This document shows positions 8,610 to 57,602 of a stretch of 57,606 nucleotides of DNA, in pieces. Source of the stretch: an uncultured Holophagales bacterium (GTDB lineage: Bacteria > Acidobacteriota > Thermoanaerobaculia > UBA5066); assembly GCA_964636395.1 (NCBI GenBank), contig CAZWRQ010000002.1, forward strand, positions 1 through 57,606, read 5' to 3'. A program made the translations under genes and the position numbers. The notes beneath the pieces were generated by a model. The model saw nothing but the letters and a program-made list of their open reading frames with translations, did not search any database and was not told the DNA's origin. Within the stretch, counting starts at the first letter, position 1; every line of letters begins with the position of its first letter.

Positions 8610-10079
8610 GTGACCGGTCCCGCCGCCGCGAAGGAGGAGAGAGAGAGCGCCGCGAAGCCGGGCGGGCGGGAGCGCGTCTTCGACGTCGCCCCGGAGGACG
8701 AGCTCCTCTACAGCATGTCGGCGGACGGGAAGCGGAAGTTCATCCGCCCCGTCCTCCACCGCGGCCGCTACTGGAAGGTCCGGCGGGCGATGGCGTGGTC
8801 GCTCTTCGTCCTCTTCGTCGCGCTCCCGCTCGTCCCGCTCGGGGGCCACCCGGCCGTCCACCTCGACCTCGGCCAGCGGCTCTTCCACGTCCTCGGCGCG
8901 ACGTTCCACCCGACCGACAACCTTCTCCTCCTCCTCTTCGGCTTCGGCGTCATCGTCACCGTCTTCTTCGTCGGCTCGACGTTCGGCCGGATGTGGTGCG
9001 GCTACGCCTGCCCGCAGACCGTCTACCTCGAGTTCTTCTTCCGCCCCGTGGAGCTGCTCCTCGAGGGGACGCCGCTCGCCCAGCGCAAGCTGAACGCCGC
9101 GCCGATGAGCGCGCGCAAGGCGGCGATCAAGACGGCCAAATGGGCGATCTGGGCGCTCCTCGCGCTCCTCCTCGCCTCCACGTTCGTCGCCTACTTCGTC
9201 AGCTGGAAGGGGCTCCTCGCGGGCCTCGCCTCGCCTGCAGAGGCGACGGGGGCGCTCGGGACGATCGCGTTCCTCACCGGCCTGATCCTCTTCGACTTCG
9301 GCTGGTTCCGCGACCAGATGTGCACGGTCGCCTGCCCCTACGGCCGCCTCCAGAGCGTCATGGCCGACCCCGACACGATCCTCGTCGCCTACGACGCGAA
9401 GCGGGGCGACCCGAAGGTGAAGGTGAAGGACCGGGTCGCGGGCGTCGCCGCGGGCGACTGCATCGACTGCCGGAGCTGTGTGAACGCGTGCCCGACCGGC
9501 ACCGACATCCGCCGCGGCCTCCAGTCCGAGTGCATCGGGACGGCCCAGTGCATCGACGCCTGCGACGAGGTGATGCTCGGCCAGAAGAAGCCGATCGGGC
9601 TGATCAAGTACACCTCCGAGCGCGAGGAAGCGGGAGGGACGCGGCGCCTCGTGAGGCCCCGGAACCTGATCTACCTCGCGCTCCTGACGCTCGCCTGGGG
9701 CTCCCTCGCGTTCCTCCTCCTGACCCGCGCCGACGCCCTCGTCGAGATCGTCCGCGGCGGGCGCGAGCCGTACCGCGTCCTCGTCACCGGCGAGGTCGCG
9801 AACCAGCAGCGGCTCCGCGTCACGAACCAGCTCGACGTGCCGCAACGCTTCTCCGTCGAGGTCCTCTCCCCCGGCGGCGCTCGGTTCGTCCTGGCCGGCG
9901 GGCCGGTCGACGTCGCCCCGGAGAAGGTCGTCACCGTCAACGTCGTGACGACCGTCCCGGCCGAGGTCTTCCGCGACGGCCAGGCCACGGCCCGGTACGT
10001 CGTCACGTCCGACCGGGGCTTCCGGAAGGAGATCGAGTTCCTCCTCCTCGGGCCCTGGGGAAAGGGGGCCGGACGGTGA
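8610..10079 (+). CDS. ccoG: CcoG/FixG 4Fe-4S ferredoxin-type membrane protein (cbb3 assembly, cupric reductase)
   Basis: Motifs CPYGRLQSVM and CIDCRSCVNACPTGTDIR are present, with multiple TM segments. Confidence 0.9.
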   Translation: MTGPAAAKEERESAAKPGGRERVFDVAPEDELLYSMSADGKRKFIRPVLHRGRYWKVRRAMAWSLFVLFVALPLVPLGGHPAVHLDLGQRLFHVLGATFHPTDNLLLLLFGFGVIVTVFFVGSTFGRMWCGYACPQTVYLEFFFRPVELLLEGTPLAQRKLNAAPMSARKAAIKTAKWAIWALLALLLASTFVAYFVSWKGLLAGLASPAEATGALGTIAFLTGLILFDFGWFRDQMCTVACPYGRLQSVMADPDTILVAYDAKRGDPKVKVKDRVAGVAAGDCIDCRSCVNACPTGTDIRRGLQSECIGTAQCIDACDEVMLGQKKPIGLIKYTSEREEAGGTRRLVRPRNLIYLALLTLAWGSLAFLLLTRADALVEIVRGGREPYRVLVTGEVANQQRLRVTNQLDVPQRFSVEVLSPGGARFVLAGGPVDVAPEKVVTVNVVTTVPAEVFRDGQATARYVVTSDRGFRKEIEFLLLGPWGKGAGR

Positions 10080-10609
10080 AGCTCCGGGCGTTCCTCTCCG
10101 AGTACCGCTGGCCCCTCTACCTGACGGGCCTCCTGACGATGTCGATCGTCGCCTACGCCGTCCTCGTCTTCGTGGCGACGCGACCCACGGCGCCGCGCCC
10201 GATCGCCGGCTTCTACGAGTCCTCGCAGGAGTGGGACGCGGACGAGGCGGTCGTCGCGGCGAGCCGCGCGCTCGGCTGGACGGTGAGGTACGAGCTCCCG
10301 GCCGGCGTGCCTCACGTCGCCGGAACGCCCCGCCCCGTCGACGTCCACGTCGCCGACCGCGACGGGCAGGGTGTGACGGGGCTGACCGGCCGCCTCTACG
10401 CCCTGCGCGCGGCCGAGTCGCGGCGCGACGCACCCGGCACCCTCGTCGAGCTGCCCCACCTCCCCGGCTCCTACCGCGCGCTCCTGCGCGTGGACGAGCC
10501 GGGCTCCTGGGACTTCCGCCTCGACGCGGAGCGCGACGGCCAGCGCTTCGTCCACTCGGCGCGCGTCGCGGTCGAGAAGGACGCCCCCGAGGGAGGGAGC
10601 TCCCGGTGA
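10076..10609 (+). CDS. ccoH: FixH/CcoH family protein
   Basis: GTG 10076 overlaps the ccoG stop (GTGA). It has an N-terminal TM and then a FixH-like soluble domain, in the conserved ccoGHIS position. Confidence 0.7.
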   Translation: MKLRAFLSEYRWPLYLTGLLTMSIVAYAVLVFVATRPTAPRPIAGFYESSQEWDADEAVVAASRALGWTVRYELPAGVPHVAGTPRPVDVHVADRDGQGVTGLTGRLYALRAAESRRDAPGTLVELPHLPGSYRALLRVDEPGSWDFRLDAERDGQRFVHSARVAVEKDAPEGGSSR

Positions 10610-13134: not shown

Positions 13135-13377
13135 GTGGAGACGATCTTCGTCCTCCTCCCGCTCGCCCTCCTCATCGCGGGGATCGCCCTCGCGCTCTTC
13201 GTCTGGGCCGCGAAATCGGGGCAGTTCGACGACCTCGAGACCCCCGCAGTCCGGATGCTCTTCGACGACGAGCCTGCTCCCGCCGCCCCGCGCCCCGCGT
13301 CCGGCGGGCCCGCCTCTCCCCCGAACCCGAATCCTCCGGAGACCACCTCCGACGCGCCGACAAGGAGGACCGAATGA
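13135..13377 (+). CDS. ccoS: CcoS/FixS cbb3 oxidase maturation protein
   Basis: It starts directly after the ccoI stop. The sequence ETIFVLLPLALLIAGIALALFVWAAKSGQFDDLE is characteristic of CcoS. Confidence 0.85.
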   Translation: METIFVLLPLALLIAGIALALFVWAAKSGQFDDLETPAVRMLFDDEPAPAAPRPASGGPASPPNPNPPETTSDAPTRRTE

Positions 13378-13997
13378 GCCGACCGAGAACGCCCGTCCGC
13401 ATCCTGATCCTCCTCCTCGGGATGGTCGCGGCGGGCTCCCTGGCGTACGCGCTGAGCAACGTGCGCAAGGGCTACGAGCCGCGACAGCCGATCCTCTTCC
13501 GGCACTCGCGGATGGCCGGGCCCGCCGTGATGCAGACGAACGAGAAGGGCGAGGCGGTGAACGTCGGGGGCTACGACATCCCCTGCCTCACCTGCCACAC
13601 GATGCCCTACAAGGGACGCCACTCGACCGTCCCGTCCACCGCCGTCTGCATGAACTGCCACACGACGGTCGGCCTGAACCGCGAGTGGGTCCTGAAGATG
13701 AAGGACTACTGGGACCGGGGAGAGCCGATCCCCTGGGTGAAGGTCCACGACCTTCCCGACTTCGTCTACTTCGACCACTCGGCCCACCTGAACGCGAAGG
13801 ACGGGAAGGGCAACCCGAAGCTGCCGCTCGCAGACGCGGAGGGGCGCCCCTGGCAGATCTGCGCGAACTGCCACGGCCGCGTCGAGGAGACCGACATCGT
13901 CTCCGTCACGAACGCCTTCAACATGCAGTGGTGCCTCGACTGCCACCGCAAGCCCGAGATGAAGGCCTCGACCGACTGCGTCGCCTGCCACCGCTAG
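13374..13997 (+). CDS. actA: Alternative Complex III pentahaem cytochrome c subunit ActA
   Basis: ATG 13374 overlaps the ccoS stop (ATGA), with AAGGAGGA upstream. It has an N-terminal TM and five CxxCH sites (CLTCH, CMNCH, CANCH, CLDCH, CVACH). Confidence 0.85.
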   Translation: MSRPRTPVRILILLLGMVAAGSLAYALSNVRKGYEPRQPILFRHSRMAGPAVMQTNEKGEAVNVGGYDIPCLTCHTMPYKGRHSTVPSTAVCMNCHTTVGLNREWVLKMKDYWDRGEPIPWVKVHDLPDFVYFDHSAHLNAKDGKGNPKLPLADAEGRPWQICANCHGRVEETDIVSVTNAFNMQWCLDCHRKPEMKASTDCVACHR

Positions 13998-14009: not shown

Positions 14010-17000
14010 ATGAAACCGAACGAGACCTCCCCCCGGCCCGAGGCAGGCGTCGACCGGCGCGAGTTCCTCCGCCTCGGGAGCGCGCTCGCGGCGGCCGGCG
14101 CCCTCGCGAGCGCGGGCTGCCAGCCGCCGCAGGAAGCGACGATCCCGTTCCACGACATGCCCGAGAGCCTCGCAGAGGGGATCGGGCGGGCCCGCTTCTT
14201 CCACACCGTCGTCGACGGCACGCCCGTCCTCGTGAGGACGCGCGAGGGGCGCCCGATCCTCGTCGCGCCGAGTCCGACCGACGCGAGCGGCCGGGGCCTC
14301 ACGCTACGCCACCAGGCCGCGCTGATGGACCTCTACGACCCGGACCGGGCCCGCGGTCCGCTCTCCGTCCGGAGGGGCCAGGGGCCGACCGTCGCCTCGA
14401 GCTGGAAGACGGTCGGGTCCGAGGTCGTCTCCCGCCTCGCGAAGGCCGGCAGCGGCGCGGTCCTCCTGACGGGACCCGTCGCGAGCCCCGCCCTCTCCGA
14501 TGCGATCGGCGCGATCTCGGCCGCCACCGGCCTCCGTCATGTCGCCTGGGCCCCGCTCGCCTCCGACGCCGCGGCGGCCGCGCACCGGGCCGCGTTCGGC
14601 GACGAGCGCCTCCCGCGGCCGCTCCTCGGGAAGGCCGACCTGATCCTCGGCCTCGGCGCCGAGCTCCTCGACCGCCCGGCCGACGGCCTCGAGCGTGACT
14701 TCGCGATGCGCCGCTCCCCCGACGCGCCCGAAGCGCGGATGAGCCGCTTCGTCCAGATCGAAGGGCGCCTTTCGCTCACCGGCGCGAACGCCGACGAGCG
14801 GGTACGCGTCCGCGACTCGCAGCTCGCCTCCGTCGCCGCCGCCCTCGCGCACGAGCTCGTCGTGACCCGCAAGGCCGGCCCGCTCGCCGCCGACGCCGCG
14901 GTCGCCGCCGCCCTCGCGCCGTTCGCTCCCGAGGCCGTCGCGAAGAAGGCGGGCCTCGACCCGGCGCTCCTCTCCCGCCTCGCCGGCGAGCTCCTCGCCG
15001 CGCGCGGGAAGGCGATCGTCCTCGCGGGAGGCGCGGCGAGCGGCTCGGCCTCGGGCGAGGCGCTCGAGCTGGCGGCCCTCCTCCTGAACCTGACGCTCGA
15101 CGCCTACTCCGCCGGCCTCTTCGACGAAGCGGCCGCCGAGCGGCCCGCCACAGGCAGCGCCGCCGCCCTCGCGGCCCTCGCCGACGAGATGCGCGCCGGG
15201 AAAGTCTCGCTCCTCCTCGTCGCGGGCGCGAACCCCGTCTACGACGCGCCGTCGGCGCTCCGGATCGCCGAGGCGATCGCGAAGGTCCCCTTCGTCGTCT
15301 CGCTGAACGACCGCCTCGACGAGACGAGCCTCCTCGCCGACCTCTTCGCCCCGGCGAGCCATCCGTTCGAATGCTGGGGCGACGCGACGCTCCCGAAGGG
15401 GCTCCTCGCGATCCAGCAGCCGGTGATCCAGCCGCTCTACGACACGCGCGGTCTCCTCGACCTCCTCGTCGAGTGGGGCGCCGCTGCCGGGGCGGGCGGA
15501 GAGCTCGCCGCCGCCGTCGCCGCCGCCACGGCCGCGCTCGCGAAGGTCCCGCTCCCCGCCTCCGCGGCTCCCGCGCCGAGCCCCAGCTTCGCGTGGCACT
15601 TCCTCCGCGCTGCCTGGGCGCCCCGCTTCGGCGCGGCGTCCGGCTCGCCCGAGCTCGAGAAGGCCTGGAACGAGCTCCTCCGCTCCGGCGCCTTCCAGGG
15701 GCCCGCCCCCGTTGCGCCTCCCGCGCGTTCTCTCGCCCCAGCGGCGCTCGCGCTCCTCTCCGCGCTCCCCGAGGCCCCCGCCGGCCTCGAGCTCCAGCTC
15801 TACCCGCACCTCGCGCTCCACGACGGGCGCGCCGGGAACAACGCCTGGCTCCAGGAGCTCCCCGACCCGATCACGCGCATCTCCTGGGGCGGCGCGCTCT
15901 CGATCGCCCCCCGCCGCTTCGACGAGATGGGCCTCGCGAACGGCGACCTCGTCGAGGTCGACTCGGGGCATGGCAAGCTCGTCGCGCCGGCCTACCGCCA
16001 CGCCGGGATGCACGCCGACGAGGTCGCGCTCCCGCTCGGCCTCGGGCGCTCCGCCTGCGGCCCGATCGGCGCCGGCGTCGGCCCGAACGCCTTCGCGCTC
16101 GGCCTCCTTTCGAACGGTCGCCTCCTCTCCGCCGGCCTCCCCGTCACGATCCGCAAGGCCGGCGGGCGCGAGGAGCTCGCGTTCGCGCAGGGCTCCGACG
16201 TCATCGACCGCGACCGGCGCCCGCTCGTCCCGGTCACGACGCTCTCCGCATACGAGAAGGACCCGAAGTCGGGGACCGAGCAGCAGCACGGCGGCCCCTC
16301 GGCCTGGCCGGAGCACGACTACCCGAACGCCCGCTGGGCGATGGCGATCGACCTCAGCAAGTGCAACGGCTGCGGCAAGTGCGTCCTCGGCTGCCAGGCC
16401 GAGAACAACATCCCCGTCGTCGGCCGCCGGGGAATCCTCGACGGCCGCGAGATGTCGTGGATGCGGATCGACCGCTACTACGACGCCCCGAAGAAGGAGG
16501 GCCGCTGGGACGCGGAGGTCTGGGACGGCCCGCTCCCGGTCGTCGAGGAGCCGAAGGTCCTCTTCGAGCCGATGCTCTGCCAGCACTGCGAGAACGCGCC
16601 GTGCGAGACCGTCTGCCCGTTCGTGGCGACGATGCACAGCGAGGACGGCCTGAACCAGCAGATCTACAACCGCTGCGTCGGCACCCGCTACTGCGCGAAC
16701 AACTGCCCGTTCAAGGTGCGGCGCTTCAACTTCTTCGAGTACGGCAAGGCGCAGGAGAGCGCCCTCTTCCGGGCGCTCGAGCCCCGCATCAAGCGGAACG
16801 CGGAGCTGAACACCCGCGCCCCGATGCAGATGAAGAACAACCCCGAGGTGACCGTGCGGAGCCGCGGCGTGATGGAGAAGTGCTCCTTCTGCGTCCAGCG
16901 GATCCGGGAGGCGCGGGCCGCCGCGACGCGCGACGGGAAGGAGAAGACGCACTTCCCCGACGGCGCCGTCGTGCCGGCCTGCATGGAGGCCTGCCCGACC

Positions 17001-17147
17001 GGCGCGATCACGTTCGGCGACGTGAACGCCCCGGGGTCCAGGGTCGCCGCGCTCTCCGCCCACCCGCGGGCAATGCGCCTCCTCGACGCGCTGGGCGTTA
17101 AGCCCTCCATCTCCTATCTGACGAAGGTGCGCAATGACAAGGCCTGA
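14010..17147 (+). CDS. actB: Alternative Complex III subunit ActB (molybdopterin-like domain fused to an FeS domain)
   Basis: It has a Tat signal ([22 protein letters not shown]). The C-terminal ferredoxin-type clusters are [37 protein letters not shown] and CMEACPTGA. Length is 1045 aa. Confidence 0.9.
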
Positions 17148-18630
17148 GTCGAGCCCCTACGCCACGGTCATGGACGACAGCCAGCTCACGGGCCGGCCGA
17201 TCGTCCTCGCGGGAGCCGGCCCCTACGGCGGCGACCTCGAGGTCCCCGAGCCGCTCGTGACGGGCGGCAAGAAGTGGTGCGACGTCGACCAGGACATCTG
17301 CATGCACGCCGAGCGCTTCCCCACGAAGAGGTGGTGGGCCGCGTTCGCCGTCGCGCTGACGCTCCTCGGCGTCCTCGTCGTCTCGCTCGTCACCCTCCTC
17401 TACGCCGGCATGGGGATCGTCGGCGTCAACCACCCGGTCGGGTGGGGGACGTTCATCGTCAACTTCGTCTTCTGGATCGGCATCGGCCACGCCGGGACGC
17501 TCATCTCGGCGGTCCTCTACCTCTTCCGGCAGCAGTGGCGGACCGGCATCAACCGCGCCGCCGAGGCGATGACGCTCTTCGCCGTCGCCTGCGCCGGCAT
17601 CTTCCCGGTCATCCATCTCGGCCGCGCCTGGTTCGCCTACTGGCTGGTCCCCTACCCGAACGCGCGCGGCCCGCTCTGGATCAACTTCAACTCCCCGCTC
17701 GCCTGGGACATCTTCGCGATCTCGACCTACGGGCTCGTCTCGGCCGTCTTCTGGTACGTCGGCCTCCTGCCCGACCTCGCGACCGTGCGGGACCGGGCGA
17801 CCCACCCGTGGCGGAAGAGGATCTACAACGCCCTCAGCCTCGGCTGGAACGGCTCGCACCGGATGTGGCGGCACTACGAGTCGGCCTACATGGTCCTGGC
17901 CGCCCTCGCGACGCCGCTCGTCTTCTCGGTCCACACGATCGTCTCGTTCGACTTCGCCACCGCGGTCATGCCGGGCTGGCATACGACGATCTTCCCGCCC
18001 TACTTCGTCATCGGGGCGATCTTCTCCGGCTTCGCGATGGTCATCACGCTGATGACCTTCATGCGCGGCTACTTCGGCATGAAGAGCTACATCACGCTGA
18101 ACCACATGGAGTCGATGGCGAAGATCCTGATGCTGACGGGCATGCTCGTCGGGTTCGCCTACTCCACCGAGTTCTTCATGGCCTGGTACTCGGGGAGCGA
18201 GTGGGAAGGGTTCGTCTTCAAGAACCGCGCGTTCGGCCCGTACGGCTGGGCCTACTTCATCATGTTCACCTGCAACGCGATCGTGCCGCAGGTCTTCTGG
18301 TGGAAGAAGCTGCGCCGGCACACCTGGGTCCTCTTCGCCGTCTCGATCCTCGTGAACGTCGGGATGTGGTTCGAGCGGTACGTCATCGTCGTGACGTCGC
18401 TCCACCGCGACTTCCTCCCCTCCTCGTGGGGGATGTACCACCTGACGAAGTGGGACTGGTCGATCCTGATCGGCTCCTTCGGCCTCTTCTTCACCCTCTT
18501 CCTCCTCTTCGTGAGGTTCCTGCCGGTCGTCGCGATCTCGGAGGTGAAGGGCGTGATGGACCCGAAGGTCGCGAAGAGCGCCCCCACCGACGCCGACCTC
18601 ACCGCCGCACGGGCGGCCCAGGAGGCCTGA
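17134..18630 (+). CDS. actC: Alternative Complex III subunit ActC (NrfD/PsrC-like quinol-interacting membrane subunit)
   Basis: It is a polytopic membrane protein that overlaps actB by 14 nt, with NrfD-like sequence ([23 protein letters not shown]). Confidence 0.9.
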
Positions 18631-18633: not shown

Positions 18634-19188
18634 ATGTTCACGCCCGTCTCGAAGAAAGGCGTGCTCGGACACTTCTGCGAGCCCGACGAGGCGCTCGCGG
18701 CCGCCGCGAAGGTCCGCGACGCCGGCTTCTCGCACTTCGACTTCCTGACTCCCTTCCCGATCCACGGGATGGAGGAGGCGATGGGACAGAAGCGCTCCTG
18801 GATCCCCTGGGCGACCGGGGCCCTCGCGCTCTGCGGCATCCTCTTCGCCCAGGGCCTCCAGAACTGGGTGATGATCTTCGACTGGCCGATGAACTTCGGC
18901 GGGAAGCCGTTCTGGTCGTGGCCGTCGTTCATCCCGATCACGTTCGAGGCGATGGTCTTCTGGGCCGCCATCGGGAGCGCGCTCGTGGCGATCGCCGCCG
19001 GGAAGCGGGACACCGTCCCACAGCCGCCGCCGACGGAGATCGAGACGGGGGCCACCGTCGACCGCTTCGTCCTCTGGATCAGCGCGACCGACCCGAAGTG
19101 GAGCGATTCCGCGACGCCGGAGTTCGTGAAGGGCCTCGGCGCGAACGGCGTGCGCCTCGTCGACCTCGAGGGAGGCTCCGATGCGTAG
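18634..19188 (+). CDS. actD: Alternative Complex III subunit ActD
   Basis: Position and size match ActD. It has a soluble N-terminal domain followed by two TM helices. Confidence 0.75.
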   Translation: MFTPVSKKGVLGHFCEPDEALAAAAKVRDAGFSHFDFLTPFPIHGMEEAMGQKRSWIPWATGALALCGILFAQGLQNWVMIFDWPMNFGGKPFWSWPSFIPITFEAMVFWAAIGSALVAIAAGKRDTVPQPPPTEIETGATVDRFVLWISATDPKWSDSATPEFVKGLGANGVRLVDLEGGSDA

Positions 19189-19846
19189 CCCCGCCCGCCT
19201 CCTCTCCATCTTCGTCCTCGCCTCCGCCGCCTCGCTCCTCGCGGCCTGCGACCTCGGCCTCCCAGCCGGCCGGACGCCGCACCGCGAGGGGAACCGCCTC
19301 GACATGGGCGACCAGAGGAAGCTCAAGCCGCAGCGGAAGGACCTCTTCCTCGCGCGAGCGACCGGCCTCATGGAGCCGCAGCCGGGCGCCGTCGCTTGGG
19401 GCGAGGCGCCCTACCCGTACGCCCAGAACGAGGCCGACCGGGCCGGCGCCGAGCTCGTCAACCCGCTCCAGCCGACCCCCGCGGTCCTCGCCCGGGGGAA
19501 GTTCGTCTACGAGAACTTCTGCATCACCTGCCACGGCGAGAAGGGGGCCGGCGACGGAAAGGTCACCGCCCTCTTCCCGAAGCCGCCGAGCCTGATGACG
19601 CAGAAGGTGCGCGACTGGCCCGACGGCCAGCTCGTCCACCGCCCGATGCGCGGCCAGAACTCGATGCCGAGCTACGCGCGGCAGATCGACCAGAACGAGG
19701 CATGGGCCGCCGTCCTCTGGATCCGCGAGATGCAGAAGGGCGAGCCGGTCGCCCCGCCACCGGCGGCGTCGGCCGTGACGCCGGCGACGACGGCCTCCGC
19801 GCCCGCCGCCCCGCAGGCCGCTCCCCCGTCCGGAGGGAAGTCATGA
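19181..19846 (+). CDS. actE: Alternative Complex III monohaem cytochrome c lipoprotein ActE
   Basis: It has a lipobox (LLAAC), a single CITCH haem site and a downstream Met-containing segment (MRGQNSMPSY). Confidence 0.8.
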   Translation: MRSPARLLSIFVLASAASLLAACDLGLPAGRTPHREGNRLDMGDQRKLKPQRKDLFLARATGLMEPQPGAVAWGEAPYPYAQNEADRAGAELVNPLQPTPAVLARGKFVYENFCITCHGEKGAGDGKVTALFPKPPSLMTQKVRDWPDGQLVHRPMRGQNSMPSYARQIDQNEAWAAVLWIREMQKGEPVAPPPAASAVTPATTASAPAAPQAAPPSGGKS

Positions 19847-29945: not shown

Positions 29946-31340
29946 GTGCTCGACGCCCTGCCCGCACCCCCGGCCTCCTCCCTGGCCCCTTCCGGCTTCG
30001 GGACGCTCGAGACGGTCTTCGCCGCGCTCGGGCGGGTCCTCGTCGTCCTCGACCGCGACTTCCGTGTCCTCCGCGCGAGCCGATCGCTGGACGACCTCGC
30101 CCGTCCCGGGGCCGTCGAGGCGGCCCTCGGCCGCCCGATCGAGGAGCTCGTCGGGGCGCGCCTCTTCGGGCCGTCGGAATCGCTCCGGGAAGCGCTCGAG
30201 CAGGGGCACCGCGAGGAGGGCCGCCGGGCCATCCTCCGCTGCGGAGAGGAGAGCGCCCGCCTCGTCTCGCTCACCGCCGCGGTCCTCCCGAGCGACGTGA
30301 CGAGCCACTGCGACCCGCGGGCGCGCTACATCGTCGTCCTTCGTCCGGCGGAGACCGACAACGGCCTCGTGCAGTCGATGCTCTCGTCCCACGGCCTCGT
30401 GGCTCGCTCCCCGGCGATGCGCGGGATCGTCCACCTCGTCGAGTCGCTCCACCGGAGCGAGGCGACGGTCCTCGTCACCGGAGAGAGCGGCACCGGCAAG
30501 GAGCTGATCGCCCGGGCGCTCCACGCGAACTCCCCGCGCTGCACCGGGCCGTTCGTCGCCGTCAACTGCGGGGCCCTGCCGGGCGACCTCCTCGAGAGCG
30601 AGCTCTTCGGCCACGTCCGCGGCGCCTTCACCGGGGCCGTCCGCGACCGCGTGGGGCGCATCGACCTCGCCCGGGGCGGGACGCTGTTCCTCGACGAGGT
30701 CGGGGACATCCCGCCGCACCTGCAGGTCAAGCTCCTCCGCGTCCTCCAGGAGAGGCGGTTCGAGCGGGTCGGCGAGAGCACCCCCCGCCCGATGGACGCC
30801 CGGGTCATCGCCGCCACGAACGTCGACCTCGCGGAGGCGATCCGGATCGGGCGCTTCCGCGACGACCTCTACTACCGCCTGCGCGTCGTCCCGATCCACG
30901 TCCCTCCGCTCCGGGAGCGGGTCGAGGACATCCCCCTCATCGCCCACCACCTCCTCGCCCACATCGGAGGGCGCGAGGGGCGGGCTCTCCTCCTCTCTCC
31001 CGACACGATCGTCGCGATGGCCCGCTATCCGTGGCCCGGGAACGTCCGCGAGCTCGGCAACGCCCTCGAGTACGCCGTCGCGACCTGCACGGGCCAGACG
31101 ATCCAGATCGAGAACCTGCCGCCCGAGCTGCGACAGGGAGCGGAGCGGAGCGCCCTCGAGCCGGCCTCCCCGCAGGACGCCGCGCCGCTCGGCGACGCTC
31201 TCGCGGAAGACCCGGCCGAAAGGCTCCGGATCCTCCAGACCCTCGAGTCTGCGCGGTGGAACCGAGGGCGCGCCGCCGAGCTGCTCGGCATGAGCCGGAG
31301 CACGCTCTGGCGGCGGATGAAGGAGCTCGGGATCGAGTGA
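29946..31340 (+). CDS. Sigma-54-dependent transcriptional activator (PAS-like sensor, AAA+ domain and Fis-type HTH)
   Basis: It has Walker A (GESGTGKELIARALH), the GAFTGA motif (RGAFTGAV), ESELFGH and a C-terminal HTH (AAELLGMSRSTLWRRMKELGI). Confidence 0.9.
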   Translation: MLDALPAPPASSLAPSGFGTLETVFAALGRVLVVLDRDFRVLRASRSLDDLARPGAVEAALGRPIEELVGARLFGPSESLREALEQGHREEGRRAILRCGEESARLVSLTAAVLPSDVTSHCDPRARYIVVLRPAETDNGLVQSMLSSHGLVARSPAMRGIVHLVESLHRSEATVLVTGESGTGKELIARALHANSPRCTGPFVAVNCGALPGDLLESELFGHVRGAFTGAVRDRVGRIDLARGGTLFLDEVGDIPPHLQVKLLRVLQERRFERVGESTPRPMDARVIAATNVDLAEAIRIGRFRDDLYYRLRVVPIHVPPLRERVEDIPLIAHHLLAHIGGREGRALLLSPDTIVAMARYPWPGNVRELGNALEYAVATCTGQTIQIENLPPELRQGAERSALEPASPQDAAPLGDALAEDPAERLRILQTLESARWNRGRAAELLGMSRSTLWRRMKELGIE

Positions 31341-31741
31341 GCTCCCGCCGGGACTTCCTCGGGACCGCCTGGGCCGCCGCGGGCACGGCCGCGGCCGCCG
31401 CCGGCACGGCCGTCCTCGGCCGGGCCCTCTCCGGGTCGCCCGAGCCCGAGAGGAGCGTCCGCCTCCCCGCCGAGCTCCTCGCGCGCGCCGAGAAGGAGGG
31501 AGGGCTCGTCCACGAAGGGCTCCACGTCCGCGGCCCGGCCGCCGCCCCGGTCGTCCTCGACCTCACCTGCACGCACCTGCGCTGCCGCGTCGCTCCGGTC
31601 GAGGGCGGAGGCTTCTCGTGCCCCTGCCACGCGAGCCGGTACGACGCCGAAGGGCGCGTGACGGCGGGCCCCGCCGCGCGGCCGCTGGTCCGGCCACGCC
31701 TCTCTCCCGACGGCGCGGGATTCGTGGCACGCCTCTCGTGA
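31337..31741 (+). CDS. Rieske [2Fe-2S] protein with a Tat signal
   Basis: GTG 31337 overlaps the regulator stop (GTGA). It has SRRDFLG twin-arginine signal plus a TM, and the Rieske boxes CTHLRC and CPCHAS. Confidence 0.85.
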   Translation: MSSRRDFLGTAWAAAGTAAAAAGTAVLGRALSGSPEPERSVRLPAELLARAEKEGGLVHEGLHVRGPAAAPVVLDLTCTHLRCRVAPVEGGGFSCPCHASRYDAEGRVTAGPAARPLVRPRLSPDGAGFVARLS

Positions 31742-32559
31742 TCCTCGGCCGCGTCACGTTCGGCCTCCTCGCCGTCGCGCTCCTCTCCGGCCTCGCCCTC
31801 GCCCCGTTCTGGTCGGCGGGACGCGCGCTCGAGAGCCTCGAGACGCTCAACGGGGCCACCCCGTGGGGCTTCTTCCTCCGCGGCGTCCACGCGTTCTCCG
31901 CGTGGGGGTTCCTCCTCGGGACGCTCGCCCACCTCGCGGAAGTCCTCTGGAAGCGGACCGAGCGCCGTCTTCGGCCCGCCGTCTGGTGGCGCTCGATCTC
32001 CCTCCTCCCCGTAGCCGTCCTCGCGCTCCTCGGCGGCTTCCTGATGCGAGGCGACGCCGAGGCTCAGGCGGCGGTCGCCGTCTGGCGCGAGATCTCGACG
32101 AGCGTCCCGATCGCAGGCCGAGCCCTCGCCGCGCTCCTCCTCGGCCTCCCCGGCTCCGACCTCGCCCCGGTCGCGCTCCACCATGCCGGGACCTTCACGC
32201 TCCTCGCCTGGCTCCTGACGGCCGAGCACGGCGGGACGCTCGTCCCCGATCTCCGCTCGACCGTCCTCGCCGCGCTCGCGAGCTTCGCGGCCGCGGGCCT
32301 CTTCCCCGTCTCTCTCGGGCCGCCGGTCGCGCCCGTCGGCGCTCTCCTCCTCGGCCCCTGGTACCTCCTCGGCCTCCAGGGAGCCCTCCTCGTCCTTCCC
32401 GTCGCGGCCGGCTGGCTCCTGCCGCTCGCCCTCCTCCTCGCGGTCGGGCTCGTGAGGCACGTCGACGGGCGCGCCCGGGCGGCCCTCCTCGCGCTGGCGG
32501 CCGCCTGGGGCGCGGGCTACCTCGCCCTGACGCTCCGCCTCCTCCTCGCCGTCCGCTGA
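31738..32559 (+). CDS. Cytochrome b (b6-like) membrane subunit of a Rieske/cyt b complex
   Basis: GTG 31738 overlaps the Rieske stop. A His pair is spaced 13 residues apart (H-AFSAWGFLLGTLA-H) and a second pair 14 apart (H-AGTFTLLAWLLTAE-H). A GPWY motif sits where PEWY is expected. Confidence 0.75.
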   Translation: MILGRVTFGLLAVALLSGLALAPFWSAGRALESLETLNGATPWGFFLRGVHAFSAWGFLLGTLAHLAEVLWKRTERRLRPAVWWRSISLLPVAVLALLGGFLMRGDAEAQAAVAVWREISTSVPIAGRALAALLLGLPGSDLAPVALHHAGTFTLLAWLLTAEHGGTLVPDLRSTVLAALASFAAAGLFPVSLGPPVAPVGALLLGPWYLLGLQGALLVLPVAAGWLLPLALLLAVGLVRHVDGRARAALLALAAAWGAGYLALTLRLLLAVR

Positions 32560-34370
32560 TGTTCCGGGCCCAGGCGCTCCTCCTCGCGCTCCTCCTCGCG
32601 CTCGCGGGGCTGCTCGGGGCCCTCGGGCGCGAGCGGCAGCGCGCCGCGGCTCTCGGGCGCGCTCCCGATCGCGCCGGCGGGAAGGTGGAGCGCTGCGTGA
32701 CGTGCCACGTCCGCCCCGAGGAGGACCCCGGCGGGGCGCACGCCCGCGCCGCCGTCGGCTGCTCCTCCTGCCACCTCGGCAACCCGCTCGCGTTCGACAA
32801 GGGGCGCGCGCACGCCGGAATGGAGCCGGAGCCGGGCGCGCTCCGGAGCGTCGCGCGCACCTGCGGCCGGAGCGGCTGCCACGTTCGCGAGACGGCCCGC
32901 GTCGCCTCTTCGCTCATGGCGCGGGCGAGCGGGATCGTCTCGGTGAACCGGTGGGCCTTCGGCGAGATCCCCCAGCCGCGCGGCACGGCCACGATGGCCG
33001 ACCTCCTCGCGAAGGAGGAGCGGACCCCCGCGGAAGATCACCTCGCGAAGCTCTGCGCGGGCTGCCACCTCCACGCGCTCCGCGCCAGCCGGGACGACGC
33101 GATTCACGGCAACGGCAGCGGCTGCTCCGCCTGCCACGTCGCGCGCCGGCTCCCGGGCGCGGTGCCGCGGCCGCATCCCGCCGTCGACGCCCGCGTCACC
33201 GACGACCGCTGCCTCGGCTGCCACAGCCGGAGCGGGAGGATCGCGCTGACGTACGAAGGGCTCTACGAAGTCGAGCCGGCGCAGGCCGCCGCGCTCGGCT
33301 CGGCCGCGACGACGCTCCACGACGGGCGCCCCGCCGCGCACGCCGAGGTGGACGTCCACCGCCGCGCCGGCCTCTCGTGCGTCGACTGCCACCTCCACAC
33401 CGACCTGATGGGCGACGGGACCACGCACGAGCACTCCGAGAGCCAGGTCGAGATCACCTGCGAGGCATGCCACGGCCCCGTCCGCGAGGGAGGCGAGACG
33501 ACCTGGGCCGAGGTGAGGGACCCGATCACCCGCGACCTGCTCCGGCAGCAGGGGGAGACGCGGCCGCCCGGCGAGCGTGTCCGCCTCGGCCGGCACGGGA
33601 CGCCGGTCTGGAACCTCCGCCCGTCGGAGGGCGGGTGGTCGACGCTCCGCAAGCGGCAGGGAGTCGCGCTCGCCACGAGGCCGACTCCGGCCGACGCGAA
33701 CCATCGCCTCCCCGGCCACGAGCGCCTCACGTGCAGCGCCTGCCACTCCGCCTGGGCGCCGACCTGCTCGACCTGCCACACGCGTTACGACCCCGCGGGC
33801 GCGCAGTGGGACTTCGCGAAGGCGGCCGAGACGCCGGGGCGCTGGGTCGAGAGCTCCGAGGGGTACGACGCACGGCCTCCGGCGCTCGCCGTGAGGCCGG
33901 ACGGCCGAATCGCCCCGGCGATCCCCGGGATGGTGATGGAGCTCGACGCCGCCGCGGTCTCCGGCCCGCGCGTCTCGCGCCGGCTCTACGCGTCCCTCGA
34001 CCCGCACTCCACCGGGAAGAAGGCGCGCGACTGCGCGAGCTGCCATCTCTCCGCGTGGGCGCTCGGACTGGGCACCGGGGCGCTCTCCTTCGGGAGCGCC
34101 GCGGCGACGTTCCGTCCGGTCGAGCCTGCCGCGGAGGACGCCCGGATGGCCGCCGACGGCTGGACCCGCCTCGACGCCCACTCGCCCGGGATCGGCACCC
34201 GCGTCGGCCTCCGCTCGCTCGACGCGAGCGAGCTCCGCCGCGCCCTCGCCGTCGGCGCCTGCCTCCCCTGCCACGCGAAGGCAACCGACCCGGTCTGGAG
34301 AGACTTCGCCGCCTCGAAGGCGCGTCTCGCGCGGGGCGGGACGAGGTGCGGGTTCCGAGCCGGCGCGTAG
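32559..34370 (+). CDS. Multihaem cytochrome c (11 CxxCH plus one CX4CH), membrane-anchored or secreted
   Basis: ATG 32559 overlaps the cyt b stop (TGATG). It has an N-terminal hydrophobic helix. Haem motifs are CVTCH, CSSCH, CGRSGCH, CAGCH, CSACH, CLGCH, CVDCH, CEACH, CSACH, CSTCH, CASCH and CLPCH. Confidence 0.85.
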   Translation: MFRAQALLLALLLALAGLLGALGRERQRAAALGRAPDRAGGKVERCVTCHVRPEEDPGGAHARAAVGCSSCHLGNPLAFDKGRAHAGMEPEPGALRSVARTCGRSGCHVRETARVASSLMARASGIVSVNRWAFGEIPQPRGTATMADLLAKEERTPAEDHLAKLCAGCHLHALRASRDDAIHGNGSGCSACHVARRLPGAVPRPHPAVDARVTDDRCLGCHSRSGRIALTYEGLYEVEPAQAAALGSAATTLHDGRPAAHAEVDVHRRAGLSCVDCHLHTDLMGDGTTHEHSESQVEITCEACHGPVREGGETTWAEVRDPITRDLLRQQGETRPPGERVRLGRHGTPVWNLRPSEGGWSTLRKRQGVALATRPTPADANHRLPGHERLTCSACHSAWAPTCSTCHTRYDPAGAQWDFAKAAETPGRWVESSEGYDARPPALAVRPDGRIAPAIPGMVMELDAAAVSGPRVSRRLYASLDPHSTGKKARDCASCHLSAWALGLGTGALSFGSAAATFRPVEPAAEDARMAADGWTRLDAHSPGIGTRVGLRSLDASELRRALAVGACLPCHAKATDPVWRDFAASKARLARGGTRCGFRAGA

Positions 34371-52530: not shown

Positions 52531-53240
52531 GCGGCACACCGCTCCCGCCCGCGCTTCGCGCCGCCGTCGAGAGAGACCTTCGGCCGGTCCGCCCGCTCGC
52601 CTCGCCGGCGCGGCGCGCCCTCGTCCTCCTCGCCTGGGCCGCCGTCGCCGCGGCCCTCGTCCTCGCCCTCCGGGGCCTCCGCTCCGACGCCTCAGAGCTG
52701 GGCGTCCTCCTGACGTGGGGCGTCGTCCTCGCCGAGGTCGCCGCAGGCGCCGGGCTCGTCGCGCTCGCGCTCGCCGAGGCGGTTCCCGCGCGGGGACCGG
52801 GGCGCGGCGCCGCGCTCCTCGCCCTCGGCGGTGCCGCGGCCCTCTTCGTCGCCCTCGCCGTCGCGGCCCGCCGCGCGAGCCACGGGATGGAGGTCGACGA
52901 CCCGCTCCTGAGGTTCGGCCCCTCCTGCGCCGGCCTTCAGGGCTTCATCGGCCTGACGGCCTTCGCCGTCGCCGCCCTCCTCGTCCTTCGGGCCGCGCCG
53001 CTCCGCGCCCGGCTCGCGGGGCTCCTCGCCGGCGCCGGGACCGGCTTCCTCGCCGAGGGGGTCTACCACCTCGACTGCCCCATCACGCACCTTTCTCACG
53101 TCCTCGTCTGGCACGGCTCCGCCATACTCCTCCTCGCGCTCTTCGGGCTCGGCTTCGGCCTCGTCCTCGAGGCGAGGGAGCGGGCTCGAATGGAACGACG
53201 GCGCGCCGACACGGCCGCGCGGAAAGGAGGCGAGGGTTGA
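52527..53240 (+). CDS. NrsF-like (DUF1109) membrane anti-sigma factor
   Basis: ATG 52527 overlaps the sigma stop (ATGA). It has about 6 TM helices and two Cys 50 residues apart (Cys134, Cys184). From memory, that matches the spacing reported for Caulobacter NrsF. Confidence 0.7.
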   Translation: MSGTPLPPALRAAVERDLRPVRPLASPARRALVLLAWAAVAAALVLALRGLRSDASELGVLLTWGVVLAEVAAGAGLVALALAEAVPARGPGRGAALLALGGAAALFVALAVAARRASHGMEVDDPLLRFGPSCAGLQGFIGLTAFAVAALLVLRAAPLRARLAGLLAGAGTGFLAEGVYHLDCPITHLSHVLVWHGSAILLLALFGLGFGLVLEARERARMERRRADTAARKGGEG

Positions 53241-54286
53241 GCGACGAGGTCTTCCGGAAGCTCACGAGCCTCTCTTCCTGCGCGGGGTGAGCGTCGAAGC
53301 TGCCCCCCGGGCAGACCGCGCAGGTCCTGCGCGTCCTCGGTGACCTCTTCCCCGCGGCCTCCCGCCCCGACGTCCTCGTCGGGCTCGCCGAGCCGGACGA
53401 CGCCGCGGTCCTCGACCTCGGGGACGGGCGGGCGCTCATCCTGACGACCGACTTCTTCACGCCGGTCGTGGACGAGCCGTACGACTTCGGCGCCATCGCG
53501 GCCGCGAACGCGATGAGCGACGTCTGGGCGATGGGGGGCGAGCCCGTCCTCGCTCTGAACCTCGTCGCCTTCCCGCCGCAGCTCTCGGCCGCGACGCTCG
53601 CCGAGCTGCTCCGAGGGGGCGCCGAGGCCGTCCGCGCCGCAGGGGCCGTGATCGCCGGAGGGCACTCCATCCAGGACAAGGAGCCGAAGTACGGGCTCTG
53701 CGTCGTCGGCTTCGGCGAGACCGGCCGTCTCCTGACGAAGGGGGGCGCGCGGCCGGGTGACGGGCTCTGGCTGACGAAGCCGCTCGGGACGGGGACGGTC
53801 ACGACGGCCCTCAAGCGCGGCCTCGCTTCGGAGGGCGAGGTCGCCGCGGCGGTCGCCTCGATGAAGGCGCTGAACCGGGGCGCGGCGCGCGCCGCGTGGG
53901 CGGCGGGAGCGAAGGCCGCGACCGACGTCACCGGCTTCGGCCTCCTGGGGCACGCGCTCGAGATGGCCGAGGCGTCGGGCGTCCGCTTCCGCTTCGAGTG
54001 GGACGCGCTCCCCTTCCTTCCCGGGGCGGCGCGCCTCGCGGCCGACATGGTCTTCCCCGGCGGCGCCTTCGGGAACCTCGAGCACTTCGGATCGCGCCTG
54101 GCGCGCTCGCGCCCCCTGACCGACGCCGAGGCGATGCTCCTCGCCGACCCGCAGACCTCGGGCGGCCTCCTCGTCGCGGTGCCGGCGGGAGGAGAGGAGC
54201 CGTTTCGCGCTTCGATCGGGCGCGAGGGCGGTCCGGCGTGGCGGGTCGGCGAGGTCGTCGAAGGCGACGGGCTCGAGGTGTCCTGA
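53237..54286 (+). CDS. selD: Selenide, water dikinase (selenophosphate synthetase) SelD, with in-frame UGA (selenocysteine) at 53288-53290
   Basis: TTG 53237 overlaps the anti-sigma stop (TTGA). FRKLTSLSSCAG-U-ASKLPPG aligns with E. coli SelD IRLTQYSHGAG-C-GCKISP. The same frame continues into DDAAVLDL and TTDFFTPVVDEPYDFGAIAAANAMSDVWAMGG. The ORF track only reports 53468-54286. Confidence 0.85.
53300..53333 (+). promoter_or_regulatory. SECIS-like stem-loops downstream of the selD UGA
   Basis: CTGCCC-CCC-GGGCAG lies at 53300-53314. CGCGCAG-GUC-CUGCGCG lies at 53317-53333 (7-bp stem, G-first loop). The second resembles the GCAGGUCUGC apex of the E. coli fdhF SECIS. Confidence 0.55.
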
Positions 54287-54562: not shown

Positions 54563-55447
54563 ATGAGAGTTGGAGCGATCGTGTCGACGCTCCTCGCGCT
54601 CCTGTGGGCAGCGCCCGCCGTCACCGCGGAAGCGGTCGACTGCGCCGCCTGCCACGAGGAGATCGCGAAGGCGACGACGAACCAGGTCCACATGCGGATC
54701 GCACCGTTCGAGGTGAAGGGGCACGCCGTGGGCTGCGAGGGATGCCACGGGAACGGGCAGGTCCACGCCGAGAGCGGTGACAAGGCGCAGATCCGCGTCC
54801 TCGGCGAGGACAAGGCCTCCGACAAGGCCTGCCTCGAATGCCACCGGTTGAAGGGCTTCCCGGCCTGGCACGCCTCGACCCACGCGGCCGAGGACCTTCA
54901 CTGCACGAGCTGCCACACGATCCACAAGGAAAGCCGGCCCCTCGAGACGTGCGCGAAGTGCCACGCCGCAGAGCGGGCCCAGTTCGAGCTCCCCTCGCAC
55001 CACCCTCTCCGCGAGGGGAAGATGACGTGCGCGAGCTGCCACGACCCGCACGCGGCGACCGAGGCGCAGCTGAAGACGAAGCAGCGGCAGAACGACCTCT
55101 GCACGAAGTGCCACCAGGCGCAGGAAGGCCCGTTCGTCTTCGAGCACGCCCCCGTCCAGGAGAGCTGCGCCACGTGCCACGTCCCGCACGGCTCGGTGGC
55201 CGGCCGGCTCCTGACCGCGAACGAGCCGATGCTCTGCCTCCAGTGCCACGAGCTCCATTTCCACACGAGCTACGAGGCGACGGACGGCGTCCAGATGCTC
55301 GGCGGCATTCCCCGGCAGAGCCCGAACGGCCCCCAGGGAATGAACATGGCGTTCGCGACGAAATGCACGCAGTGCCACCCGAAGGTCCACGGCTCCGACC
55401 TCCCCTCGCAGGGGATCTCGAGCGGCGGGCGTTCGCTGACGAGGTAG
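54563..55447 (+). CDS. Periplasmic decahaem cytochrome c, MtrA/DmsE/PioA/MtoA family
   Basis: ATG 54563 has GAGGAGGGGG upstream, followed by a signal peptide. Ten CxxCH sites are present (CAACH, CEGCH, CLECH, CTSCH, CAKCH, CASCH, CTKCH, CATCH, CLQCH, CTQCH) in 294 aa. It lies immediately upstream of an MtrB-like barrel. Confidence 0.85.
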   Translation: MRVGAIVSTLLALLWAAPAVTAEAVDCAACHEEIAKATTNQVHMRIAPFEVKGHAVGCEGCHGNGQVHAESGDKAQIRVLGEDKASDKACLECHRLKGFPAWHASTHAAEDLHCTSCHTIHKESRPLETCAKCHAAERAQFELPSHHPLREGKMTCASCHDPHAATEAQLKTKQRQNDLCTKCHQAQEGPFVFEHAPVQESCATCHVPHGSVAGRLLTANEPMLCLQCHELHFHTSYEATDGVQMLGGIPRQSPNGPQGMNMAFATKCTQCHPKVHGSDLPSQGISSGGRSLTR

Positions 55448-55457
55448 GAGAGGAGAG

Positions 55458-57188
55458 ATGCAGAACCGCACCACCACGCTCCTCCTCGCCGCCGCGGTCC
55501 TCGTGGCGCCCGGCCTCCGGGCGGAGGATCCACCCGCGAAGACCACTCAGGGGAGCCTCGAGCTCGGCGGCTACGGCACGAGCGTCGACGGCGCCCCCGG
55601 GAAGGCGATGGAGTACGAGCCGACCGGCAAGTACATGCCCTACCGGCTCTTCGCGTCCGCCCACGAGAGCTGGGGAAGCCTGAAGATCTCCTCGGAGAAG
55701 AAGGCGGGGGACGACGAATCGCATCGCCTCGCCTTCGACGTGAAGCGGACGGTCCGGGCGAAGGCCTGGCTCGACCAGGTGGCCCACCGCCAGCCTCACG
55801 ACCCGATGAAGAACCTGACGGCCGCCGTCGCCGACGGAAAGTTCGTCTGGAACACCGACCTCGACCCGACGGCCGCCTACAAGACGTCGTACACGACGTG
55901 GGGCGGCCGCGCCGAGGTCCAGCTCCCGTCCCTGTCGGCGGCCACTCTCGGCGTCTCCTACGGAGAGCAGCGCCGAAAGGGGCACGTCCAGCTCATGGCG
56001 CTCTCGCACTGCGACAGCTGCCACGTCACGAGCCAGTCGCGAGCCGTCGACGAGAAGACGCGCGACGCCGCCGTCGACCTCCTCGTCGCCTTCCGCGGAG
56101 GGAGCGCCCGGGTCGGGTACAACCACCGCGAGCTGAAGAACGAGGAGCCCTACGCCCTCTACACCTACGACCGCGCGATGCACCCGGTGGCGCGGACGCC
56201 CATCTTCGACAACCGCCTCCAGTACGACGCGACCGAGGGCGTCCAGCGGATCGACGAGCGCCCCGACACCCGGAAGAACACCGGGAGCCTCGACTTCTCG
56301 CTCGACAGTCTGGCCGGCTTCGCCGTGACCGGGATCGGGGTCGTCTCGAAGACCGAGAACCGGTTCGCCGGCCTCGAGGCCTCCTATGCCGGAGGCGCGC
56401 TCGCGCTCGCCCGGAGCTGGGACTCGGGCCTCAGGCTCCGGTTCCGGACCCGCTACTACACGATGGACAACGACGACGTCTTCGTCGACGTCATCGAGCG
56501 GAAGTCGGTCGCCGGGCCCCAGGCGGGGAAGACCTACCGCGAGATCTACAAGTACGACCCCGACTTCCTCCGGACCTCCGCGCTCGGCCGGGACGTCTAC
56601 GAGTCGAACCTCGAGGCCGCGTACCGGCTCGGGAAGGCCGCCGGAACCCTCAAGGCGGTCTGGAGCTTCCAGAGCCTCTCCCGCGACAACGTCGAGGCGA
56701 CCCCGGGCGAGGAGACGACGGTGACGAACGTCGTCGGCCTCTCCTGGCGGGCCCAGGTCGCGAAAGGCTTTCGGCTCTTCGCGGACGCCCGCCACGGCGC
56801 GGTCTCGCACCCGCTCCTCGCGCTCGACGGCACCTGCTCGCAGCTGCAGTTCCCGACGTCGGGGACGAGCGGCCTCGACCCGAAGCTCGCTCAGTACTGG
56901 CAGTCCCACGCGGCGCGCGTGGGCGACGGCACCGCGTACCCCGAGAGCTGGAACGAGCTGAAGGCCGGCGCGACGTGGACCACCGGCGCGCTCGGGCTCA
57001 CCGCGAACTACCGCTACTACACCGGCGACAACGACGCGGGCGACTTCACCGACTGGTCGAAGACGAACCACTCGGCCACCGTCACTCTCTGGTCGATGCC
57101 CTCCCCGACCTGGGACTGGTACGTCGCCTGGGCCTTCCAGAAGAGCGAGCTCGGAGGTCACACCTGCGTCTCGCTCTTCGATGGGTGA
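55458..57188 (+). CDS. MtrB/PioB-family decahaem-associated outer-membrane beta-barrel, as terminated at UGA 57186-57188
   Basis: ATG 55458 has AGGAGAGGAGAG upstream, followed by a signal peptide (LLLAAAVLVAPGLRA). It has long alternating beta-strand sequence and an internal HCDSCH motif, and it is adjacent to the decahaem gene. It ends at a TGA after which the frame stays open. Confidence 0.8.
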   Translation: MQNRTTTLLLAAAVLVAPGLRAEDPPAKTTQGSLELGGYGTSVDGAPGKAMEYEPTGKYMPYRLFASAHESWGSLKISSEKKAGDDESHRLAFDVKRTVRAKAWLDQVAHRQPHDPMKNLTAAVADGKFVWNTDLDPTAAYKTSYTTWGGRAEVQLPSLSAATLGVSYGEQRRKGHVQLMALSHCDSCHVTSQSRAVDEKTRDAAVDLLVAFRGGSARVGYNHRELKNEEPYALYTYDRAMHPVARTPIFDNRLQYDATEGVQRIDERPDTRKNTGSLDFSLDSLAGFAVTGIGVVSKTENRFAGLEASYAGGALALARSWDSGLRLRFRTRYYTMDNDDVFVDVIERKSVAGPQAGKTYREIYKYDPDFLRTSALGRDVYESNLEAAYRLGKAAGTLKAVWSFQSLSRDNVEATPGEETTVTNVVGLSWRAQVAKGFRLFADARHGAVSHPLLALDGTCSQLQFPTSGTSGLDPKLAQYWQSHAARVGDGTAYPESWNELKAGATWTTGALGLTANYRYYTGDNDAGDFTDWSKTNHSATVTLWSMPSPTWDWYVAWAFQKSELGGHTCVSLFDG

Positions 57189-57602
57189 GCGGCGACCATC
57201 CTATCGGGCCAGTTCGGCTCGAACGCGTCCCGGGTCACCTCCGACTCCACCAGCAGCACCGTCATGGCCGGCGTGAACCTCCGCCCCGCGGGGCCGGTCA
57301 CGCTCGCCCTCCTCGCCTCCTACACCGCCTCCGATTTCTCCATGGACCCCTGGACCCTTAACGGAGGCGAGTTCGCCGCGCGGAGCCACCTCCAGCCGTA
57401 CGACTACTCCCTGACCCACACCTTCTCGGACCTCGACGTCTCGCGTTTCGACGCGAGCGCCGAGCTCCGCTACAGGCTCTCCAAGAGCTTCTCGCTCCGC
57501 GGCCTCTACAGGTTCATCGACTACCAGGACGACGCCCCGTACCTCGAGGACGCCTCGGGCAGGGTCAACGTCGTCTCCGGAGGCTTCGGGCTCGTCTTCT
57601 AG
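57189..57602 (+). CDS. In-frame continuation of the MtrB/PioB-like barrel beyond the UGA (C-terminal strands ending GGFGLVF)
   Basis: It is in the same frame as 55458-57188, with no stop until TAG 57600-57602. There is no SD before the internal ATG 57264. It has an OMP-type C-terminal Phe. The joined length of 714 aa is close to MtrB (~700 aa). Confidence 0.6.
   Translation, partial: AATILSGQFGSNASRVTSDSTSSTVMAGVNLRPAGPVTLALLASYTASDFSMDPWTLNGGEFAARSHLQPYDYSLTHTFSDLDVSRFDASAELRYRLSKSFSLRGLYRFIDYQDDAPYLEDASGRVNVVSGGFGLVF
57204..57222 (+). promoter_or_regulatory. Candidate SECIS-like hairpin downstream of the mtrB-like UGA
   Basis: U-CGGGCC-AGUUC-GGCUCG-A gives 7 bp including one G-U. The loop starts 22 nt after the UGA and has G at its second position. 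It is weaker than the selD element. Confidence 0.3.

Follow-up and report, generated by a model that had tools for sequence, protein, structure and literature searches.

What does a ten-haem cytochrome do when it is encoded directly before a large outer-membrane barrel, at the very end of a contig that also carries genes for an alternative complex III (ACIII), a cbb3 oxidase and a Rieske/cytochrome b module? The question is raised by positions 54563-57602 of a 57,606-nt stretch of DNA from an uncultured Holophagales bacterium of the Acidobacteriota (GenBank assembly GCA_964636395.1, contig CAZWRQ010000002.1). This stretch, hereafter the window, is an entire contig (C2) of a genome in 417 contigs that is 95.5% complete and has about 73% G+C. 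An earlier interpretation of the DNA letters (the sequence-only reading) had noted a PioAB/MtoAB-type layout and component types that models of Fe(II) oxidation coupled to microaerobic respiration invoke, adding that they could just as well serve outward metal reduction. On the basis of sequence comparison, we consider it very likely that the locus encodes an OmcK/OmcL-type (GSU2203/GSU2204-type) two-protein outer-membrane electron conduit.

The decahaem and its barrel

All parts of the module lie on the forward strand. The omcK-like gene (54563..55447) encodes a 294-aa decahaem with ten CxxCH motifs and a signal peptidase I (SPase-I) signal peptide that ends in …AAPAVTA, is followed by EA and lacks a lipobox. 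Its TAG stop codon is followed by the 10-nt spacer GAGAGGAGAG (55448..55457), a Shine-Dalgarno-like ribosome-binding site of the barrel gene that gives the pair an operon-like coupling, and then by the barrel ATG at 55458. The omcL-like gene (55458..57602) encodes 714 aa when its single in-frame TGA (57186-57188) is read through, and its frame closes with …GFGLVF-TAG, 4 nt before the contig ends. A plain list of open reading frames (ORFs) splits this frame into 576 aa and a separate 112-aa piece. The sequence-only reading had correctly described a cytochrome of 294 aa and ten CxxCH sites whose gene precedes that of a large barrel by 10 nt, and its coordinates are borne out. The barrel gene it described is indeed present, but the in-frame TGA, the barrel's own CxxCH and the OmcK/OmcL identity had been overlooked.

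The decahaem scores 213 bits against TIGR03508, the DmsE family (cut-off 192.2), and 324.1 bits against NF041028, the GSU2203 family (cut-off 325). Among PDB sequences it matches MtrA (6r2q_A) with an E-value of 2e-38, and 10/10 haem motifs are collinear between the two proteins. The hidden Markov model (HMM) check suggested by the sequence-only reading thus identifies a true member of the DmsE/MtrA family. We built a tree of 50 decahaems, comprising 48 partners of OmcL-type barrels, MtrA from 6R2Q and a second decahaem of the same genome from contig C89. The window decahaem is sister to a protein from a Holophagales metagenome-assembled genome (MAG) with 100/100 support, and both belong to an acidobacterial clade of 24 decahaems (99/99), every one of which is partnered with a barrel containing selenocysteine (Sec). 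MtrA and the C89 decahaem, which were the only outgroups, fall outside this clade on very long branches that make their exact placement unsure. Since, as Baker et al. report (PMC8805035), PioA and MtoA form no function-specific clades in MtrA trees, a tree with these two proteins would not settle the direction of electron flow.

The barrel matches NF041027, named 'GSU2204 family CXXCH-containing (seleno)protein', at 510.7 bits (cut-off 350), over residues 12-576, so that the match ends exactly at the TGA. GSU2203 and GSU2204 are OmcK and OmcL of Geobacter sulfurreducens, where both are up-regulated on haematite and magnetite (PMC4070692). An 'OmcKL' porin:cytochrome conduit has also been described in the sulfate reducers that partner anaerobic methanotrophic archaea (ANME), with expression in HotSeep-1 four-fold above that of OetABI (PMC10553843). 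The barrel family also appears among the selenoprotein families listed in two reviews, neither of which proposes a function for it (PMC9312934, PMC13188914). Given the NF041027 score, the barrel's own CxxCH and its Sec codon, the pair corresponds to this already named conduit, and the PioAB/MtoAB-type assignment falls away.

Relatives of the barrel connect it to better known porins. All 57 aligned relatives match NF041027, 29/57 also match PF11854 (best E-value 3e-33), and 15/57 match TIGR03509 (best 3e-19). These matches allow the OmcL family to be placed in the MtrB/PioB superfamily, as what its sequences indicate is a diverged branch. An AlphaFold2 model of the window barrel, built on the 57-sequence alignment, is an all-beta barrel with a pLDDT of 86.5 and a pTM of 0.79. 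Its top match in a Foldseek search of the PDB is MtrB (6r2q_B; E 9.9e-23, TM 0.65/0.71), and the runners-up are TonB-dependent receptors with TM of about 0.4. Strand counting by DSSP gives 26 membrane-length strands, with periplasmic turns of 2-7 residues and outer loops of 2-46.

Selenocysteine, haem and the outer end of the barrel

Homologues of the barrel in databases (n=24) range from 481 to 604 aa, with 22 at 572-582 aa, a pattern that fits gene calls cut at the TGA in every case. We located barrel loci by scanning species-representative genomes, inspecting eight loci first and then 58 that were readable. In each of the 58 the frame contains a single TGA, which aligns at the motif FDG-U-A/G, and none has TAA or TAG at this position. 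The TGA is kept in loci down to about 20% identity to the window barrel, and it is followed by about 137 more in-frame codons, the last of them for an aromatic residue. In the window barrel gene, G+C content at third codon positions (GC3) is 0.95 upstream of the TGA and 0.96 downstream.

A putative selenocysteine insertion sequence (SECIS)-like hairpin, TCGGGCC-AGTTC-GGCTCGA (57204..57222), begins 15 nt after the UGA, and its loop, AGTTC, carries G at the second position. It is found in the equivalent place in nearly all of 57 sequences. Hairpin cells are paired in 86% of cases in register, versus 25-52% when the partner is slid, and at two pairs both partners have changed (GC/CG and TA/AT/GC/CG). 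In a divergent subgroup the hairpin is shifted by one base. The hairpin is convincing only because of this 57-sequence comparison: folding the 81 nt after the UGA as a single sequence does no better than shuffles (z = 0.33), and an Rfam scan around the UGA returned no SECIS or other credible family.

The site also varies between copies. Four full-length copies without a stop carry Cys in place of Sec, in the motif EG-C-GG (G145:C307, G297:C135, G085:C11 and G156:C19; loci L104-L107). Two distant paralogues (G182:C1 and G023:C34; L108-L109) retain the CxxCH and the upstream decahaem and have lost the Sec/Cys. The genome encodes tRNA-Sec (anticodon TCA), selA, selB and selD. The last of these lies 276 nt upstream of the conduit (53237..54286, forward strand), contains an in-frame TGA itself and scores 355 bits against TIGR00476 when read with U. 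Because the TGA is conserved, the hairpin covaries and Cys replaces Sec in a few lineages, the identification of UGA 57186-57188 as the codon for selenocysteine (U577, motif FDG-U-A) is strongly supported.

The second conspicuous feature of the barrel is its own haem-c motif, C185-D-S-C-H189 (56010..56024), which is invariant in 57/57 aligned relatives and in six more paralogues of Cys type or lacking Sec. In the model it caps an extra-long beta-hairpin, after seven strands and between the unusually long strands 162-182 and 189-212. Sec577 lies in the loop joining two further long strands (552-573 and 587-611), five strands from the C-terminus. Seven major strands thus precede the CxxCH loop, 14 separate it from the Sec loop and five follow the latter. 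This 7/14/5 layout and the long hairpins recur in a second model, built for a Desulfobacterium homologue with 28% identity. Both termini of outer-membrane proteins are usually periplasmic. If this is assumed here, the CxxCH and Sec sites are both at the outer end of the barrel. Of the invariant or near-invariant positions, 34/36 are at the outer end, versus 56% expected from composition; conserved residues at this end include R372, R378, R409, D691 and D698.

We propose that the conduit works as follows. The decahaem would be exported to the periplasm and, by analogy with MtrA in MtrB, would insert as a ten-haem wire into the 714-aa barrel, occupying its lumen. With strong support, the UGA would be decoded as selenocysteine through the downstream hairpin and SelA, SelB, SelC and SelD. 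The invariance of the barrel's CxxCH suggests that it binds one extra c-type haem. By strand counts on the two AlphaFold models, the barrel would have 26 strands and, at its outer end, two extra-long hairpins, one tipped by the haem motif and the other by the selenocysteine. From this location, the porin itself probably supplies the outermost redox site, in the position taken by MtrC within MtrCAB. The conduit may exchange electrons with a mineral, a partner cell, or a soluble chalcogen or oxyanion.

Several observations weigh against this proposal. The decahaem misses the NF041028 cut-off by 0.9 bit. The window barrel has no match to TIGR03509 (NCBIfam, E<=10) or PF11854 MtrB_PioB (Pfam, E<=0.01), and TIGR03509 has no match anywhere in the genome. 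A search of PDB sequences with the family profile of the barrel found no MtrB, which came up in the fold comparison only. The MtrB/PioB-type barrel of the sequence-only reading consequently stands as a fold and fails as a direct family match. The AlphaFold models contain no cofactors, and the assignment of membrane sides depends on strand counting and the usual rules for outer-membrane proteins. Haem attachment, selenium incorporation and complex formation in the OmcK/OmcL family are predictions. Further, Murali et al. (PMC10553843) treat OmcK as extracellular and note that a periplasmic cytochrome is missing. The motif-for-motif alignment of the decahaem with MtrA argues instead that OmcK would be the inserted wire, with the porin as the source of the outer haem.

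Competing readings of the conduit

The alternative that survives best takes the same outer face as a catalytic site. The barrel would then carry a haem-selenocysteine centre, and act at the cell surface as an enzyme that reduces or oxidises a soluble chalcogen or oxyanion rather than as a plain wire to minerals. Its haem would be His/Sec-ligated or have the Sec adjacent, by analogy with the His/Cys haems in TsdA, SoxAX and DsrJ, and an enzyme of this kind, fed by the ten-haem wire, might act on polysulfide, thiosulfate/tetrathionate or selenite/tellurite, for example. The invariant Sec/Cys and CxxCH do share one end of the barrel with invariant Arg (R372, R378, R409) and Asp, and exchange of Sec for Cys is typical of catalytic or ligand residues. 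The models, on the other hand, set the two hairpins 14 strands apart, roughly opposite one another across the barrel, which makes contact between haem and Sec hypothetical, and the two distant paralogues keep the haem motif without Sec/Cys.

Gene order is similarly divided on this point. In 15 related loci (e.g., L024:1123-4344), all from Thermoanaerobaculia and 'Sulfomarinibacteraceae' MAGs, a DUF3373 gene and a tetrathionate-reductase-family octahaem lie directly upstream of omcK/omcL. The octahaem scores 298.7 bits against TIGR04315, below its cut-off of 375. Only one group of related genomes has this synteny, and the window locus lacks it. In the window's own lineage it is selD that adjoins the module, which counts in favour of the catalytic reading. 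Overall, we regard a catalytic outer face as unlikely, while recognising that a porin haem and an invariant selenocysteine forming one surface redox or catalytic site is the most interesting point raised by the locus. It is a matter for the whole family, and is not specific to this locus.

Less probable still is the proposal that the module is an Fe(II)-oxidising conduit, in which electrons from extracellular Fe(II) would pass through the decahaem and barrel to periplasmic carriers and ACIII or the Rieske/cytochrome b complex, and from there to the cbb3 oxidase. Every component type does occur within the 57-kb window, and all the respiratory genes named by the sequence-only reading could be located. 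The cbb3 genes comprise a CcoNO fusion (5328-7799; NF011053 1163.9 bits, cut-off 1080), CcoP (8021-8608) and CcoG (8610-10079). The ACIII genes encode an ActA-like protein (~13350-13997), ActB (14010-17147), ActC (17134-18630), ActD (18634-19188; PF11821 172.8 bits) and ActE (19181-19846). The third module consists of a Rieske protein (31337-31741), a cytochrome b (31618-32559) and a multihaem cytochrome (31863-34370). The last of these had been given about 12 haems; the gene is present, and a regex count finds 11 CxxCH. The cbb3 set also includes, after ccoG, a P-type ATPase gene (10231-13134). Its N-terminal metal-binding domain bears a weak likeness to NF041115, 'UxxU metal-binding (seleno)protein' (38.8 bits, cut-off 95).

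The two-gene layout without MtrC resembles pioAB and mtoAB, and the expression of homologues in electron-accepting partner bacteria of ANME indicates that inward flow is possible for the family (PMC10553843). Nevertheless, the conduit is at least 33 kb from ACIII and cbb3, with unrelated genes between. Among five other carriers with strong matches, ccoN occurs in one only, 845 kb from the module, while ActD occurs in four and never near it. This lack of conserved co-location provides no support for a dedicated Fe(II)-to-O2 chain, and leaves the Fe(II)-oxidation reading unsupported. The nearness of the module to cbb3, ACIII and the Rieske/cytochrome b genes is most likely incidental, though the organism may use the conduit and these respiratory parts together. 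Many carriers are Thermoanaerobaculia or Desulfobacterales MAGs, and the Geobacter pair responds to Fe(III) oxides (PMC4070692). Nor can sequence support a direction, because MtoA and PioA lack function-specific clades (PMC8805035); the caution of the sequence-only reading that electron flow cannot be read from sequence is upheld. We conclude that Fe(II) oxidation through this conduit is improbable, and that iron-oxidation models should not rest on a chance nearness of cbb3 and ACIII.

The weakest reading, that the barrel is a pseudogene or two genes in which the TGA is a true stop after a truncated 576-aa protein and before a small ORF, can draw on the split gene calls in every database entry, the poor single-sequence fold and the missing Rfam SECIS match, but we reject it as almost certainly wrong, given a TGA in 58/58 loci with never TAA or TAG, a frame open to an aromatic end typical of outer-membrane proteins, undiminished GC3, Cys variants, a covarying hairpin, complete Sec machinery and a barrel that could not close without its last five strands.

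Distribution, a putative second conduit and known systems

As an OmcK/OmcL-type conduit, the module can be followed into other genomes. Because the window stops 4 nt past the barrel, its downstream neighbourhood is best seen in L011, a 98%-identical relative contig from a public run, in which 9.6 kb downstream of the barrel contain no cytochrome and no MtrC-like gene. The genes there are an OmpA-family gene first, then a NifX-like gene, a pyridoxal phosphate (PLP) decarboxylase gene and others. The sequence-only reading had seen no MtrC-like surface cytochrome before the window end; there is none in the window, nor past its end in L011. Promoter and terminator scans at the locus found nothing.

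The decahaem lies directly upstream of the barrel in nearly all loci examined, and in distant carriers the gene pair is flanked by unrelated neighbours that differ between lineages. The omcK/omcL pair is a self-contained cassette. Its nearest named relative is in a Holophagales MAG (L047), with a barrel 73% identical and a SelD 82% identical to those of the window. The adjacency of selD is common to L047 and L011 (SelD 96% identical) only, marking a Holophagales-like lineage, and a pair of extracytoplasmic function (ECF) sigma factor and NrsF genes before selD is common to L011 only. In another relative, a gene directly downstream of the barrel (L020:3677-6940) encodes a protein of 1088 aa that combines 23 CxxCH with an FdnI-like cytochrome b domain at its C-terminus and is a candidate for supplying the conduit with electrons from quinol. 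Neither this 23-haem fusion nor the DUF3373/octahaem pair stands beside the window's module.

Carriers make up 47/401 sampled genomes of the phylum, and most of them show a single TGA in the barrel. The distribution is patchy: 0/3 genomes of the same family and 0/4 of the same order carry the module. Near-identical modules also occur, among acidobacterial sequences, in MAGs labelled Planctomycetaceae and Methylomirabilota (L022 and L050), which could reflect recent transfer or mis-binning.

The genome has a single OmcL-type barrel, and it also contains what looks like a separate MtrCAB-like cluster on contig C89 (C89:10385-15279; L094:4385-9280). This cluster encodes the only TIGR03507 match of the genome, an OmcA/MtrC-family decahaem at 337 bits, together with a further decahaem of the DmsE family (195 bits) and a putative barrel of 646 aa that matches no family model. 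Alignment of the OmcL family with this putative barrel by hhalign found no relationship (probability 9%). The genome-level message is one of two separate conduits, an OmcKL-type and an MtrCAB-like one. Contig C1 carries a candidate of the NapC/NirT/CymA family. A second ActA-like pentahaem gene (C157:7104-7577; L078) suggests another ACIII-type cluster in the genome; a weak 'TGA-containing' multihaem match on C157 proved to be this ordinary ActA-like gene, the flagged TGA being its normal stop.

With 47/401 genomes of the phylum as well as Desulfobacterales among its hosts, OmcK/OmcL represents a second, widespread design of outer-membrane conduit. If our reading is true, a haem- and selenium-bearing porin would extend the MtrCAB paradigm and account for the retention of a rare amino acid at the cell surface.

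How, then, does the locus compare with known systems? Cyc2, found in Fe(II) oxidisers, is a fused cytochrome-porin described as having a small barrel, an N-terminal haem motif and no partner decahaem. It resembles the window barrel in that an outer-membrane barrel polypeptide itself bears a CxxCH haem site. Here, however, the haem motif comes at residue 185, after strand 7 and before strand 8 of 26, and is accompanied by a decahaem partner and Sec. PioAB and MtoAB, which are homologous to MtrAB, encoded by two genes and associated with Fe(II) oxidation, share the two-gene layout, the same gene order and the lack of a surface decahaem, but their barrels are TIGR03509/PF11854 members without CxxCH or Sec. 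The MtrAB part of Shewanella MtrCAB (6R2Q) has a homologous decahaem, and its MtrB is the best match of the 26-strand barrel model. Yet the window locus has no adjacent MtrC, its barrel is 14% identical to MtrB with no direct HMM match, and MtrB has neither the haem motif nor the selenocysteine. The closest correspondence is with OmcK/OmcL (NF041028/NF041027), in the order of decahaem and barrel genes, the CxxCH of the barrel, a Sec codon with about 137 codons still to follow and the lack of a third cytochrome gene. The differences are that the host is an acidobacterium, not a member of the Desulfobacterota, and that selD lies directly upstream. The locus is, in this comparison, a further, acidobacterial example of the catalogued OmcK/OmcL kind.

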